Origin: a virus
DNA: 12,758 nt
Reading direction: 5' to 3' (one strand)
Virus genome (UHGV): UHGV-0134735
In this document: positions 6,001 through 12,000 of the stretch, piece by piece
How the letters are laid out: each line of letters begins with the position of its first letter
Numbering within the stretch: position 1 is the stretch's first letter
Made by a program: the position numbers

Positions 6001-9000
6001 ATAAAGTACACATCGTACTATTTAGCCATCAGCAGGACGCACTACTCACCAGGGCGGTGAATATACAACGATTCAAATATGAATCTACGGCGCTGACAAA
6101 GCGCAATAACCAAAGTGAACTTTGGGGTGTGGTGAAGCCAGCTAGTCACTGGCAAGTGCTTACCTACTGTTGAGCGGTGAAGCGCTCCCAACGCTAGCAA
6201 TAGCGTGGACGAGATGGGGAGCCGCGGGCGATAAGGCCGCCATAACGCGCACGTTGTCGCATGGAAAAATCACTGGGGTGCCGGTTATACCCCTCCGAAT
6301 GAGACTCAACAAGCTGGAGCTAGACTACCAGCCACCACACCACCAAAGTTCATCAGGAGGTCTATATGACACGCAGAACTCAGTTCAAAGGCAATTCACG
6401 TTCTCGTCGTCGTGAGCGTTTAAAGGCAAAGGCATTAGCTAACGGCGTACTGGCCCGCGAAGAAGCAATAAGTTCAGAAGTATTACACCGCCCTACTCTA
6501 AGCAGAGCGCAGATTCAGGCTAAAGGTACTCACGAAACGCCTGAGCGCATAGAAGACGCTAAGCCAATTAAGTTCATGGCACAGGACGTGATCTGGCAAC
6601 AGAAAGAATACAGACGCAATCTGGAGCGAGCGGCCATTGTGTACGCGAATGAGTTTGGACATAAGCAACCAGAAACTGGTGTATGTCTTCCAAACGTAGC
6701 CATTTACGCGGCAGGCTACCGGAAATCAAAACAACTGACAGCAAGATGACTTGTGTTGGTCGCCAGAAAATGAAATTAGGCAGTAAGCTACTGTATGAGG
6801 GGTGAGATATGCATAAATGTCAGTTCTGTGGATACATGTTTGAATCAAATGAAATGCAACGTATTTCGTTAAACCTTATCGGTAGGCCATACAACATTTG
6901 CCTAGGATGTAGCGAGAAATACAAAAACAAAGACATGTGGGACGACAATAAAAACGATATCGACTGGAATAAAGTGCCATGTATTGATGATAGTTAAAAA
7001 TAATTATGCCGCATAGTCGGCCTTCTTTTGGCATAAACAACAGAATAAACACTGCACTGTGTATTCATTCCAACGAGTGAATACACGGAGCAATGTCGCT
7101 CGTAACTAAACAGGAGCCGACTTGTTCTGATTATTGGAAATCTTCTTTGCCCTCCAGTGTGAGGGCCTTTTTATATGCATACCAATAACGCTTCACCAGA
7201 GGCATTTTCGTTATGCAATCAAACAGAAGGAGCATCCTATGCAACAGTTCGCTATTGCAGGGGCGGCATCGGTTCGCCCTTTCAACCCGATTTTATCGGT
7301 ACAGCATTCACGAAAAAATATTTTAACCGGAGCAGACTTTAAACAACCAAGAATGAAAAGTTTGCTCGAAAAGCTTTGGGATATTTTGAAACAACAAGGC
7401 CGTCCATGAGTTTTACAGATAACTGGTCAGACGAAGAATTCATTCGTCAGATGAAAGAATTAATCGGTAACGAAGGAGATATTCATGTCACTTGCAACCA
7501 CAGTGAAGGAGAGCAAGTTACAGAGGCGCATGTACACGCAGAAAGCTCTCTGGTATCGACATAATGGCGACCGCGAAGGAATGCGGGTATGCCTTAACTT
7601 GTCCCGAGTCGAAGTATTAAATCAGCGTTATTTCCTTGGGCCGTGTCCATTCTGAGAACAATCATATGAGCAAAGAATTTTACGCAAGACTGGCAGCTAT
7701 TCAGGAGAATCTGAACGCGCCAAAGAATCAGTACAACTCATTCGGTAAATATAAATACAGAAGCTGCGAAGACATTCTTGAAGGCGTTAAGCCGTTACTG
7801 AATGGCCTGTTTTTATCAATCAGCGATGAAGTTGTGTTGATTGGTGATCGGTATTACGTGAAAGCCACGGCAACTATTACCGATGGCGAAAACAGTCATA
7901 CGGCAACCGCCCTTGCACGAGAGGAAGAAAGCAAGAAAGGAATGGATTCTGCACAAGTTACTGGAGCTACAAGCTCTTATGCACGCAAGTATTGCCTCAA
8001 TGGTTTGTTCGGCATTGATGATGCGAAAGATGCAGATACAGACGAGCATAAACATCAGCAGAACGCAGCAGCAAAGCAATCAAAACCATCACCTACACCT
8101 GAACAGGTTCTAAAAGCATTCACTGACGCAGCATTGCAGAAAAACACCGTGGAAGAGCTTAAACAGGCGTTCGCCAAAGCGTGGAAGATGCTCGAAGGCA
8201 CACCGGAGCAGCAAAAAGCGCAGGACGTTTACAACATCAGACGAGACGAATTAGAAGGGGCGGCCGCTTAATGGCACATTCGATTACTGTAAGACTAAAC
8301 AAGCCCGCAAGAGAGTTTCAGGCCGGGGAAAATATCGGATTCAACATCCGTGCTGGAGTTCAGTATTACGATCGCCAGACAAAAAAGAAGGAATGGACAA
8401 ACTACAGCGCCGTTGTATTTGCCAAGCCGGGAGCGCAAGCGGATTACTACCGTAGTGTTCTTGTTGAAGGTGGCATTGTTGAAATTACCGGAGAAAACAT
8501 CAGGGTTGATATTTATCAGGGGCAAAATGGTCAATCAATCACTCTTGAATTACTGAATGCAAAGATTGGATTTGCAGCTTCAGGAAATGGCCCGCAGCAG
8601 CAAAGTAGTAACCAGCAGAACACTCCTGTATACGACGATTCCATCCCATTCTGATTTAGAAAAATAAGGATTTAATTATGCCAGCGCCTCTGTATGGTGC
8701 GGACGACGCGCGCCGCTGTTCCGGCAATTCCGTATCGGAGGTGCTGGATAAATTCAGAAAAAACTACGACCTGATAATGTCGCTACCGCAGGAAACGAAA
8801 GAGGAAAAGGAATTTCGCCATTGTATATGGCTTGCAGAGAAAGAAGAACGCGAGCGAATTTACCAGACATCAATCCGACCATTCCGCAAAGCCACATATA
8901 CCCACTTCCCTGAAATTGACCCGCGTCTGCGTAATTATCGATCACGCTATGGCGCTATCAGTAATGACTGAGGAATTTACCATGAGAGGACTTGCATACA

Positions 9001-12000
9001 ATCCCGGCATTCTTCCGGCAGAAATGATTATTCGCCAACGCGTAAAGCCAATGCCATCGAGAGAGGAATTGCTTAAGAGAAAGAGTTTCGGTTCTGTTAA
9101 TGACAACAAATATCTGAATGCGATGTGGCGGAGTGGGAAGAAATGAAACAAATATCACTAATTGAGATGGATGGTTTTCTGAAAGGTAAATGCATCCCAC
9201 GAGATTTAAAGGTTAACGAAACAAATGCTGAATATCTGGTGCGTAAATTTGCTGAAGCTGAGGCCAAGTGCGCGGCACTGGCGGTGGAGAATGCGGGAAT
9301 AAAGTCTGCAATTCCTCAACTACGGGATATTGATGCTGACAATGACAATATGGATGACGTATCTCTTGCTGAAGACTTCGGATTCAATCATGCAATAGAA
9401 CGGATGAGGAGACAGATACCTGAAACCCCAGCCACCGATGCTTTTCTGGCTGAAGTGAAGACTGAAGCACGCAAGGAGGGAGCTTACTTTGTGGCGAACA
9501 GAATGCTGGCTGCCTGGGAAGCTGGTTTTATTGATGATACTGCAAAGAACGCCGCGGATATTGCCAGGATGATTCTTACCTCTACTGAGTTTATGGCTAA
9601 TGCGCCGGAAGGCGATTTTGACCGCTCATTCTCTGATGGCGTTCTAGAAGATATCGCCGACCAGCTTCGCAAAGGAGCCTCGCTATGAGAAAATATCCGA
9701 GAGTTGAAGGTGTCTTGTCTAAAAAGAAAAACACTTCCGCGAAATGTCGTTGTGGCGCAGTGGCTAAATATAAAACCACGGTGCAGGTAGATATTTTTCG
9801 TGGCGATGATGAGGTTTTCTGGTCATGTGCCGAACACAAAAATGACTGTGTGTTTCTGCTAGATGGCGCAGTCGAGAGCAAAGGAGCATCCCAATGACAG
9901 CACTCAACAAACAGGCGCTGCGTGAAATCGCAGCGGCAGCAGTTGGCGCACATGAGCGCCTTAGTGTTATGCCGCCTGATGACATTTTCGATATCTCACT
10001 GGCAGAAGGAACTCAGCTTGATGCAGATATCACTGCCTTGAACGCGCTGAACTCCGCAGCAAACCCCACTACCGTGCTGGCGCTGCTGGCATCGCTGGAA
10101 GCCGCAGAGAAGCGGATTGCTGAACTGGAGGCGCGGGAGGTGAAATTGCCTAATCCTCATGCTCACCTCATCTGGATTCAGGCAGGCCATGCCCCTGATG
10201 ACTATTGGGATGATGTTGCCGTTTCTCATAGCGAAAAGGATAAGTGCTGCGACGGTTCAGATCGCTATCCGGTTTATGCTCTCTGGGAAATCAAAGAGGC
10301 ACTATCTGCTATTGGCATCAACATCGCCGCAGCCGGTAAAGGAGAGGACTCATGAGCACTATTGCCCGAGAATTCACCAAAGAGCAGTTACAGCAAATTA
10401 TCGAAACTGACCACGTTCAATGCGGTGAGGCTTCGGAGCTGGCGCGTATCGCACTGGCATCGCTCGAAGCGGAGCCTGTGTGCGTAATCGACCAGTCCAA
10501 TCTTGATTATCTCAAATCTGGCTCTGATGCCGATGTATGGACAGCATCCAGAACAGAGATGGGTGATGTGCTTCTGTATCGCGCCGCCCCGCCAGCGCCG
10601 GTATCTGTGCCCGCTGCGATGGAAATGGATGATGACTTTGACAGCGCGTTTGAACACGGAAAAGCTGTCGGCTGGAACGCCTATCGCGCCGCCATGCTTC
10701 AGGCCGAACCTGTAAGTAATAGTGATGAGTTACCGCTGGACTATCTGCAAGGACACAAAGACGGCCTGGAGTGGGCTGCACAATTGGCAGAAGCCAATCA
10801 TCCGCAAACAGGTGACTGGTTGTACGACGACCAAATCGATCTTGCCAGGGCGATTCGCAAAGGTCCGGATATGCCTACTGTTCAGGGTGGCAGCTCTCCG
10901 GTAACTCCGGATGGTTGGATAAGCTGTAGTGAGCGAATGCCGGAAAAGAATCAGAACGTGCTTATTTCGGTGAATTTCGATAGCTCTCTGGTTGAACCGC
11001 TAATATGCTCCGCACGCTATACCGGAAGCACATTTCGGCGCGGAGATGCAACGATTAAGCCGGGTAATGGTATTGAGCAAGCAACTCACTGGATGCCTCT
11101 ACCAGAACCGCCGCAGGAGGTTAACCGTGGCTAACCTGCAACTTGCCGTCAAAGGTGAATAACAATCCTCGCACTCGCGGGGATTTCTTTTATCTGAACT
11201 CGCTACGGCGAGTTTTGTTTTATGGAGATGATAAATGCACTTCCGAGTCACAGGTGAATGGAATGGAGAACCATTCAACAGGGTTATCGAAGCAGAGGAC
11301 TTCAACGACTGCTATGACCACTGGATGATATGGGCGCAGATAGCACATGCAGACGTAACCAATATTCGAATTGAAGAACTGAAAGAACACAAAACCGCCT
11401 GATGGCGGTTTTTTCTTGCGTGTAATTGCGGAGACTTTGCGATGTACTTGACACTTCAGGAGTGGAACGCACGCCAGCGACGCCCAAGAAGCCTTGAAAC
11501 AGTTCGTCGATGGGTACGCGAGTGCAGGATATTCCCTCCTCCGGTTAAGGATGGAAGAGAGTATCTGTTCCACGAATCAGCGGTAAAGGTTGACTTAAAT
11601 CGACCAGTAACAGGTAGCCTTTTGAAGAGGATCAGAAATGGGAAGAAGGCGAAGTCATGAGCGCCGGGATTTACCCCCTAATCTTTATATAAGAAACAAT
11701 GGATATTACTGCTACAGGGACCCAAGGACGGGTAAAGAGTTCGGATTAGGCAGAGACAGAAGGATAGCAATCACTGAAGCTATACAGGCCAACATTGAGT
11801 TATTCTCAGGACCCAAACACAAGCCTCTGACAGCAAGAATCAACAGTGATAATTCTGTTACGTTACATTCATGGCTTGATCGCTACGAAAAAATCCTCGC
11901 CAGCAGAGGAATCAAGCAGAAGACACTCATAAATTACATGAGCAAAATTAAAGCAATAAGGAGGGGTCTGCCTGATGCTCCACTTGAAAACATCACCACA

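Follow-up and report, generated by a model that had tools for sequence, protein, structure and literature searches.

The early leftward operons of lambdoid phages carry accessory genes between their recombination genes and xis. In P22 the order of the early-left genes is erf-abc1-abc2-orf56-eaE-orf45-eaF-eaD-eaI-eaA-eaG-eaC-xis-int, and in HK446 (and HK75) the locus reads gp33-Erf-gp31-Abc2-gp29-gp28-gp27. The same pL-driven niche in lambda and the Stx phages is occupied by the exo-xis genes (orf60a, orf63, orf61, ea22 and ea8.5). This ea or exo-xis region is among the last poorly understood parts of lambdoid genomes, and is now coming into view as a store of anti-defence proteins and RecBCD-related triggers. 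Here we describe such a region in the virus genome UHGV-0134735, analysed as a single stretch of 12,758 nucleotides (the window): a block of six co-oriented genes, g1 to g6, at positions 8678-11134.

Several proteins of the related systems have been characterised. Biochemistry and cryo-electron microscopy (cryo-EM) have established that Abc2 binds the RecC subunit of RecBCD, with its Pro68 entering the active site of host PpiB, and redirects RecBCD for Erf-dependent recombination. According to a July 2026 preprint, HK446 gp27, named Oad2, binds and inhibits P2 OLD, an ABC-ATPase/TOPRIM tRNase. The same preprint reports that P2 OLD is triggered by RecBCD inhibitors and by the gp33 protein of HK446 and HK75, gp33 alone being sufficient. 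It also describes Oad2 as a relative of P22 EaE, with fusions to EaD/Ea22 proteins in some cases. Ea22 proteins are tetrameric, with conserved N-terminal and coiled-coil parts and mosaic C-terminal domains, one variant of which carries DUF551.

A probable coupled segment of the early leftward operon

Listing of open reading frames (ORFs) placed six + strand ORFs within 8678-11134, at exactly the coordinates proposed in an initial annotation of this DNA:

8678-8971, + strand: g1, 97 amino acids (aa), Abc2, anti-RecBCD protein 2
8982-9146, + strand: g2, 54 aa, DUF2737 protein, equivalent of P22 orf56 and HK446 gp28
9143-9688, + strand: g3, 181 aa from ATG, mosaic member of the EaE/Oad2 family
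9685-9897, + strand: g4, 70 aa, CCCH protein outside the Pfam and PHROG families
9894-10355, + strand: g5, 153 aa, Ea22/EaD-like N-terminus, coiled coil and portable C-terminal domain
10352-11134, + strand: g6, 260 aa, EaA-like protein with DUF551

The first two genes are separated by 10 nucleotides (nt), and the following four junctions in a row (g2/g3, g3/g4, g4/g5 and g5/g6) are 4-nt ATGA overlaps. A Shine-Dalgarno-like string lies upstream of every start codon, its last base about 7 nt from the ATG (from g1 to g6: TAAGGA, TGAGGA, GGAGTGGGAAG, CAAAGGAGC, CAAAGGAGC and TAAAGGAGA). The ORF list and the table of junctions thus bear out the six same-strand frames, the overlaps and the good ribosome sites noted initially. 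The ORF lister starts g3 earlier, at a GTG at 9125. A long form of g2 starting at TTG matches phrog_1117 over its last 54 residues only, and this confirms the g2 start at 8982. Proteins g3, g4 and g5 have KG(A/E).. tails, which are the in-frame reading of the AAAGGAG ribosome site of the next gene (9667-9684, 9876-9893 and 10334-10351). Such reading probably also explains the recurrent ...KGE ends of Ea22/EaD-type proteins. The C-terminus of P22 EaD is ...IKVKGE.

These are real genes rather than chance ORFs. Pfam gathering thresholds were passed by five of the six proteins, and the sixth, g4, has close homologues in 19 clusters and, by profile, relatives in 174, with Cys residues that do not vary. 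No antisense or alternative-frame ORF of the region matched a phage family, an NCBIfam scan of ten proteins gave no match, and no Rfam RNA family was found anywhere in the window. We found no sigma-70-like promoter on the + strand within 8678-11134. The only + strand terminator-like sites in the block, at 9505-9526 and 9945-9960 (3 and 5 G-C pairs), both lie inside ORFs. The genes are therefore arranged as in a coupled segment of a pL operon, on one strand, with stop/start overlaps and ribosome sites and with no internal promoter or strong terminator.

The + strand is the pL direction of a lambdoid phage, reading from cI through a pL-like promoter, a P22-type boxB, N, CIII, a gp33 homologue, Erf, an SSB-like gene, the six genes, orf55 and Xis to Int. 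This order agrees with the initial placing of the block in the classic accessory ea region of the pL-driven strand. The block is likely to represent the accessory ea genes at the distal end of a delayed-early leftward operon, in a lambda-like prophage whose host is probably E. coli; it would work as set out gene by gene below. The initial description of a six-gene operon needs amendment. The block has no promoter of its own, appears to belong to a long pL transcript and formerly had a seventh coupled gene, and so is not an autonomous operon. Synteny with P22 and lambda points to a segment of a long early-left transcript antiterminated by N; taken with the pL-like promoter, the P22-type boxB and the N gene, it suggests a single N-dependent pL transcript across the block. 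After loss of repressor, RNA polymerase would start at pL and be modified by N at nutL, as in P22 and lambda. The modified polymerase would then read CIII, the gp33-like gene, erf, the SSB-like gene, the six genes, orf55, xis and int. Translation would be handed from gene to gene via the ATGA overlaps, with AGGAG sites lying inside the last codons of the upstream gene.

The same arrangement bears on whether the genes could instead be morons, prophage-encoded host defence or superinfection exclusion genes expressed in the lysogen. Morons are common in the variable regions of lambdoid prophages, and g4-type cassettes do move between early regions. However, neither a promoter of its own nor a flanking pair of terminators was found within the block, and genes co-oriented and coupled in a repressor-controlled pL operon should be silent in a lysogen. 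PADLOC defence models matched none of the six proteins, and we rejected the reading as defence genes. Expression as morons is thus highly improbable, and we retain the assignment to the pL operon.

Comparison with P22 showed homologous genes in the same order and with the same strand logic, the same boxB, and the same 4-nt overlaps among several ea genes. Abc2 is 94% identical in the two and g2 is 72% identical to orf56, while g3 matches EaE at 63% over 147 aa. EaD resembles g5 in the head and coil only, and EaA resembles g6 at both ends. The window lacks abc1, eaF, eaI, eaG, eaC and orf45 of P22, an SSB-like gp31 occupying the abc1 place. Furthermore, g4 has no P22 counterpart, the N-terminus of g3 differs from that of EaE, the C-terminal domain of g5 and the middle of g6 differ, and the int and xis of the window are lambda-type rather than P22-type. 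The HK446 locus is syntenic with the window and its gp27 is partially similar to g3; gp29 is absent from the window, whereas g4, g5 and g6 are absent from HK446, where gp27 leads directly to xis. The recombination system is Erf/Abc2, in contrast to Exo/Beta/Gam in lambda. Lambda Ea22 and g5 have in common the Ead_Ea22 N-terminal and coiled-coil signature and the same domain-swap evolution, DUF551 included. Among the six proteins we identified no orf60a, orf61, orf63 or ea8.5 homologue, and among the proteins of the window no relative of P22 Abc1. The comparison with Abc1, Ea22 and Ea8.5 proposed initially therefore yields only the relation to Ea22, limited to the N-terminal and coiled-coil part of g5.

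Abc2, the EaE/Oad2-family protein and a possible anti-defence role

From its sequence, g1 is Abc2. It matched PF11043 at 212.8 bits (cut-off 25) over residues 1-97 of 97, fell in phrog_656, and matched PDB entry 8b1t_A with an E-value of 3.6e-58. Identity is 93.8% to P22 Abc2 (PDB 8B1T) and 100% to HK446 Abc2. Over residues 3-66, which form the modelled RecC-binding part in 8B1T/8B1U, g1 differs from 8b1t_A by P11A and A65S only, and Pro68 is kept. Its gene is part of a recombination module of the Erf type, preceded by Erf (7666-8271) and the SSB-like gene (8271-8654). The initial guess that the 97-aa protein is Abc2 was thus correct, and the attached label of unknown function was wrong for this gene. 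Nor does g1 stand between the recombination genes and xis or next to erf, as first described, since it belongs to the recombination module and the SSB-like gene intervenes. The block as a whole is not a set of characterised housekeeping functions. The identity to the HK446 and P22 proteins suggests that g1 binds and alters RecBCD: it would bind RecC, PpiB would engage Pro68, and RecBCD would be redirected for Erf-dependent recombination.

The adjoining g2 matched PF10930 (DUF2737; P22 orf56 / HK97 gp38) above threshold at 100.4 bits and is 98% identical to HK446 gp28. In P22 and HK75 the DUF2737 gene immediately follows abc2, and in HK446 gp29 intervenes; g2 stands at the position typical of the family.

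Protein g3 belongs, as judged from alignments and profiles, to the EaE/Oad2 family, as a mosaic. It matched phrog_614 (E-value 6e-71) as well as phrog_14548, and matched HK446 Oad2 by blastp with an E-value of 4e-33. We aligned g3 with Oad2, HK75 gp28, P22 EaE and Bas106_0028. In this five-way alignment 29 of the first 31 residues of g3 are identical to Oad2, and the two proteins have in common the N-terminal head MKQxxLIEMDGFLKGKCIPRDLKVNETNAEY, a coil, a ETPATDAFLAEV motif and a QLRKG tail. Residues 94-178 are EaE-type, with 88% identity to P22 EaE, and align poorly to the C-terminus of Oad2, so that no Oad2-type C-terminal region was found in g3. Counted over the length of the longer sequence, g3 is 44% identical to Oad2 and 52% identical to EaE overall. 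There was a weak match to PF13935 (29.1 bits, profile positions 83-138). The family phrog_14548 covers g3 plus the g5 N-terminus, which fits the existence of fused forms. Searches of PDB sequences with g3 and g6 gave chance-level matches only.

We infer that g3 may bind and inhibit an OLD-type guard directly, differing from Oad2 in specificity. The OLD nuclease fires once phage proteins compromise RecBCD, and g3 would inhibit this or a similar guard by direct binding. Without g3, the gp33-like and Abc2 proteins of the phage itself would set off this guard, and the C-terminal domain of g3, unlike that of Oad2, would confer another target specificity. As a natural domain-swap variant of Oad2 lying near the same trigger (the gp33 homologue) and Abc2, g3 could help to map the part that determines target specificity, and its possible action as an OLD-family nuclease inhibitor is the most testable lead from this locus.

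An anti-defence theme for the operon draws support from this family membership and from four of the sister loci compared (L011 at 2174-3148, L012, L015 and L016), in which a gene for a 324-aa Gad1 protein (PF25705, Gabija anti-defence) lies between N and CIII. These Gad1-bearing prophages are 99.9-100% identical to the window from erf to int and carry Gad1, CIII and Kil; the corresponding part of the window (about 7173-7405) holds only a CIII-like ORF. The initial suggestion of anti-defence cargo has gained support to this extent. The accessory-gene screen of Silas et al. names only Abc1 and Abc2 from this neighbourhood.

A number of observations weigh against an anti-defence role for g2 to g6. 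Anti-OLD activity has been demonstrated for HK446 gp27 only and not for its HK75 homologue, which did not inhibit OLD; the authors of the preprint gave its identity to Oad2 as 54%, and we computed 57%. The HK75 protein is thus closer to Oad2 than is g3, which is 44% identical, lacks a 21-residue coil insert and has an EaE-type C-terminal domain, so that activity of g3 on P2 OLD cannot be assumed. The evidence on Oad2 itself comes from one preprint that has not been peer reviewed. In the relative L019, g2-g3-g4 follow a RecT/Gp157 recombination module with neither Abc2 nor Erf, which weakens the logic of an antidote to guards triggered by Abc2. A literature search on 'DUF2737' did not find the term in any of the publications listed for it. 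Data on Ea22 of lambda and Phi24B point to a role in lysis-lysogeny rather than in anti-defence. Finally, the C-terminal domain of g5, DUF551, the g4 family and DUF2737 are recurrent families known here from sequence alone.

Modular architecture of g5 and g6 and the small protein g4

Protein g5 matched PF13935 (Ead_Ea22) at 56.2 bits (cut-off 27) over profile positions 4-95, the head and coiled coil making up residues 1 to about 83. An AF2 model with a pLDDT of 71.6 has helices at residues 6-25, 28-34, 41-51 and 58-80. The C-terminal domain (about 60 residues, approximately 85-147) reads LPxPHAHLIWIQAGHAPDDYWDDV..S.SEKDKCCDGSDRYPVY... and is near-invariant in 104 proteins from Enterobacter, Klebsiella, Raoultella, Serratia, Cronobacter, Kluyvera, Tatumella, Brenneria and E. 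coli, where it is joined to at least three kinds of N-terminus. Enterobacter and Klebsiella are the source of many of these homologues, including several of the closest. Searches of the PDB with g5 gave no match by sequence or fold; in particular, neither sequence profile nor fold search found the fold of the lambda Ea22 C-terminal domain (PDB 8DSX).

The same C-terminal domain is encoded a second time in the window, behind another N-terminus:

374-751, - strand (pR direction): nin-side protein, 125 aa, g5-type C-terminal domain, phrog_343

As g5 and this ORF encode the same domain, the window contains an inverted repeat of 173 nt (387-559 on the - strand and 10149-10321 on the + strand, 79% complementary, 9.6 kb apart). 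At the protein level the two domains are about 83% identical, counted from the alignment. Recombination between the arms of the repeat would invert the whole immunity and replication segment.

Protein g6 matched PF04448 (DUF551; P22 EaA, E. coli YfdS) at 79.5 bits (cut-off 22), residues 188-255 (nt 10913-11116) covering profile positions 1-68 of 68. It fell in phrog_60 and phrog_660 and resembles P22 EaA at both ends, with 37% identity at residues 1-83 and 36% at residues 179-254. The DUF551 protein, the Cys-rich 70-aa protein and the shared-domain protein singled out in the initial annotation correspond to g6, g4 and g5, and all three calls were right.

Like Ea22 and EaA, g5 and g6 have a conserved head, a coil or linker and an exchangeable C-terminal domain. 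It seems most likely that they are oligomeric adaptors presenting exchangeable C-terminal domains to host proteins, and as such they would influence host takeover or the lysis-lysogeny outcome.

The likeness to Ea22 also suggests another role. Genes g2 to g6 might be developmental modulators that tune lysis-lysogeny and induction in the manner of the lambda and Stx exo-xis genes, such as the pro-lysogenic Ea22, rather than counter immunity. Protein g5 carries the Ead_Ea22 signature, the region lies in the same exo-xis position, and Ea22 proteins, like g5, swap their C-terminal domains and keep the N-terminus and coiled coil. Deletion of ea22 has been reported to lower lysogenisation in lambda and to alter it in Phi24B. 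However, the likeness is to the head and coil only, the C-terminal domain of g5 being unlike 8DSX in sequence and fold, and the lambda Ea22 C-terminal domain alone is reportedly inactive. Four of the exo-xis genes, as noted above, have no identified homologue among the six proteins, and the only experimentally characterised relative of g3 is an anti-defence protein. A developmental role is possible on this evidence, and it and an anti-defence role for the accessory segment are not mutually exclusive.

Protein g4 had no match in Pfam, PHROG or NCBIfam. One relative was found among 50,697 phage records, and 19 close clusters in a set of 5.8 billion proteins, all from Enterobacterales where the source organism was named. 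Exhaustive profile searching extended the family to 174 representative clusters, mostly of 57-110 aa. The alignments define the motif YPRIG...C-x(1-2)-C-G...FRGDDEV...C-x2-H. In 56 diverse sequences C21, D42 and C48 never vary and at least 90% have C23; H51 does not vary in the close relatives and is mostly kept in the wider set. Both metal-binding knuckles (C-x1-2-C and C-x2-H) are therefore conserved in the family. The best PDB profile match was to the ClpC/ClpK zinc-binding peptide, at a marginal E-value of 0.011, the remainder being noise (antibodies and ribosomal proteins). The AF2 model (pLDDT 51.9) was too poor for use of the fold, and comparison of the 56 wider members with Pfam and PHROGs gave no consistent family. 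The Cys/His pattern and the marginal ClpC/ClpK match suggest that g4 is probably a zinc ribbon. We consider that g2 and g4 may act as small cofactor-like proteins, g4 probably binding zinc.

The gene is also found elsewhere. The g4 cassette (9656-9922) has 93% DNA identity to a segment of Salmonella prophages (L007-L009, about 4972-5238), where it is found downstream of the replication genes, on the pR/nin side. It brings with it 29 nt and 25 nt of its neighbouring genes, and there too has 4-nt overlaps with both neighbours. The small g4 gene moves between both early operons. Alongside g3, this small CCCH family outside Pfam and PHROG and the portable C-terminal domain used by both early operons are further candidates for study.

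A more far-reaching proposal is that the adaptor array of g3, g5 and g6 and the putative zinc ribbon g4 each neutralise a different guard that senses RecBCD hijacking or recombination intermediates (OLD-family, retron or Gabija-like). The ea region would then be a second-layer anti-defence store, and the C-terminal domain of the g5 type, which occurs on both the pL and the pR side, a new inhibitor domain. We regard this as rather doubtful.

Mosaic structure, distribution and flanking features

A mosaic map was drawn by blastn comparison with fetched relatives:

7406-9256: gp33-like gene to g3 head, HK446, about 95-96% DNA identity, minus HK446 gp29
9656-9922: g4 cassette, Salmonella prophages, 93%
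9881-10131: g5 head and coil, Bas106, 94%
10149-10321: g5 C-terminal domain, nin-side ORF of the window itself
10352-10948: g6, at least three pieces

The GC content is 44-49% in g1-g4 and 52-57% in g5-g6, stepping up at about 9900 (9800-10100), which fits a different evolutionary source for g5-g6. The map, the GC shift and the nin-side copy of the g4 cassette show that the block evolves by cassette exchange at gene and domain boundaries. It is an ordinary, highly mosaic ea region; nothing in it overturns current understanding, and its value lies in well-defined candidates.

Mosaicism of this degree, with junctions inside genes, might mean that the genes other than Abc2 are dispensable filler, persisting by linkage and by recombination at conserved gene-boundary linkers with no significant contribution to fitness. 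Deletion variants are in keeping with this: the window holds the stub of a lost gene, the C-terminus of g6 is missing from two relatives (L012 and L016), and HK446 passes straight from gp27 to xis with no g4-g6. In the L012/L016 lineage a 392-nt deletion (relative to window positions 10893-11284) removed the DUF551 end of g6, the stub of an ASCH-domain gene, both distal hairpins and the start of orf55, which makes g6 dispensable for prophage maintenance. Filler would not be expected, however, to retain intact frames and protein motifs conserved across genera, among them Cys and Asp residues of g4 invariant over 56 diverse sequences and a g5 C-terminal domain near-invariant in no fewer than nine genera of enterobacteria. 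Coupling and ribosome sites also persist, and the block is 99.9-100% conserved in several prophages with differing upstream regions. We therefore consider filler improbable, and keep to the view of the block as an accessory segment of the pL operon.

The conserved stretch in these several prophages extends from erf or CIII through int. One contig from a metagenome (L013) matches the window at 100% identity throughout the sequence that it contains. No complete phage or E. coli genome record covered 80% or more of 8600-11200. Proteins exactly matching g5 and g3 were each found on at least 24 contigs, and the notion that the six-gene combination is unique was dropped on that account. An identical block is found in many E. 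coli-type prophages. The matching prophages are all followed by a pectinesterase gene and an aconitase-family gene, which we take to be the ybhC/ybhJ pair at the E. coli lambda attachment site.

Upstream of the block, the early-left region has the following features:

5133-5867: cI-type repressor
5993-6021, + strand: pL-like sigma-70 promoter (TTGACT-17-TACTAT), downstream of cI
6090-6104, + strand: nutL boxB hairpin GCGCTGACAAAGCGC, P22 type, the same 15-mer occurring in the annotated P22 nutL region
6366-6749, + strand: N-like antiterminator, 127 aa, phrog_271, E-value 3e-39
7406-7564, + strand: homologue of HK446/HK75 gp33, 52 aa, 86% identity over 51 aa to HK446 gp33, phrog_2123
7666-8271, + strand: Erf single-strand annealing protein, PF04404, E-value 2e-44
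8271-8654, + strand: SSB-like protein, 127 aa, C-terminal DDSIPF tail, phrog_44, E-value 1.5e-26, equivalent of HK446 gp31

Downstream of the pL-like promoter the sequence TTAGCCATCAGCAGGACGC agrees with P22 where its early-left transcript region begins. The matching 127-aa gene of sister loci, including L013, is annotated with PF25694 (N_peptide). From 7666 on, Erf matches HK446 Erf at 99% identity over 201 aa, and the SSB-like protein is 95% identical to HK446 gp31. A 62-aa Cys-rich ORF directly after N (6809-6997, phrog_19863) has a CxxC...CxxC pattern and may encode a zinc-binding early protein. The gp33 homologue and P22 Arf have in common a D/E-E-E-F-I motif near the N-terminus.

Downstream of g6 the window contains:

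11127-11162, + strand: 11-codon stub of a deleted ASCH-domain gene, GTG start, MANLQLAVKGE*, preceded by AGGAGG
11164-11185 and 11196-11215, + strand: two tandem intrinsic-terminator-like hairpins, conserved, closing the coupled block
11235-11402, + strand: orf55, 55 aa, phrog_676
11442-11660, + strand: xis, lambda-type
11638-12708, + strand: int, lambda-type

The stub overlaps the g6 stop by 8 nt; the coupled array once ran on into a seventh gene, encoding an ASCH domain, that has since been deleted. A correction to the initial annotation is that the stub and orf55 lie between g6 and xis. At the 3′ end of orf55 there is a strong terminator-like hairpin on the - strand (11391-11412). This hairpin is part of 64 nt with 95% identity to P22 and coincides exactly with the annotated terminator of the P22 aI antisense RNA, which suggests that an antisense transcript equivalent to aI RNA may end at this position.

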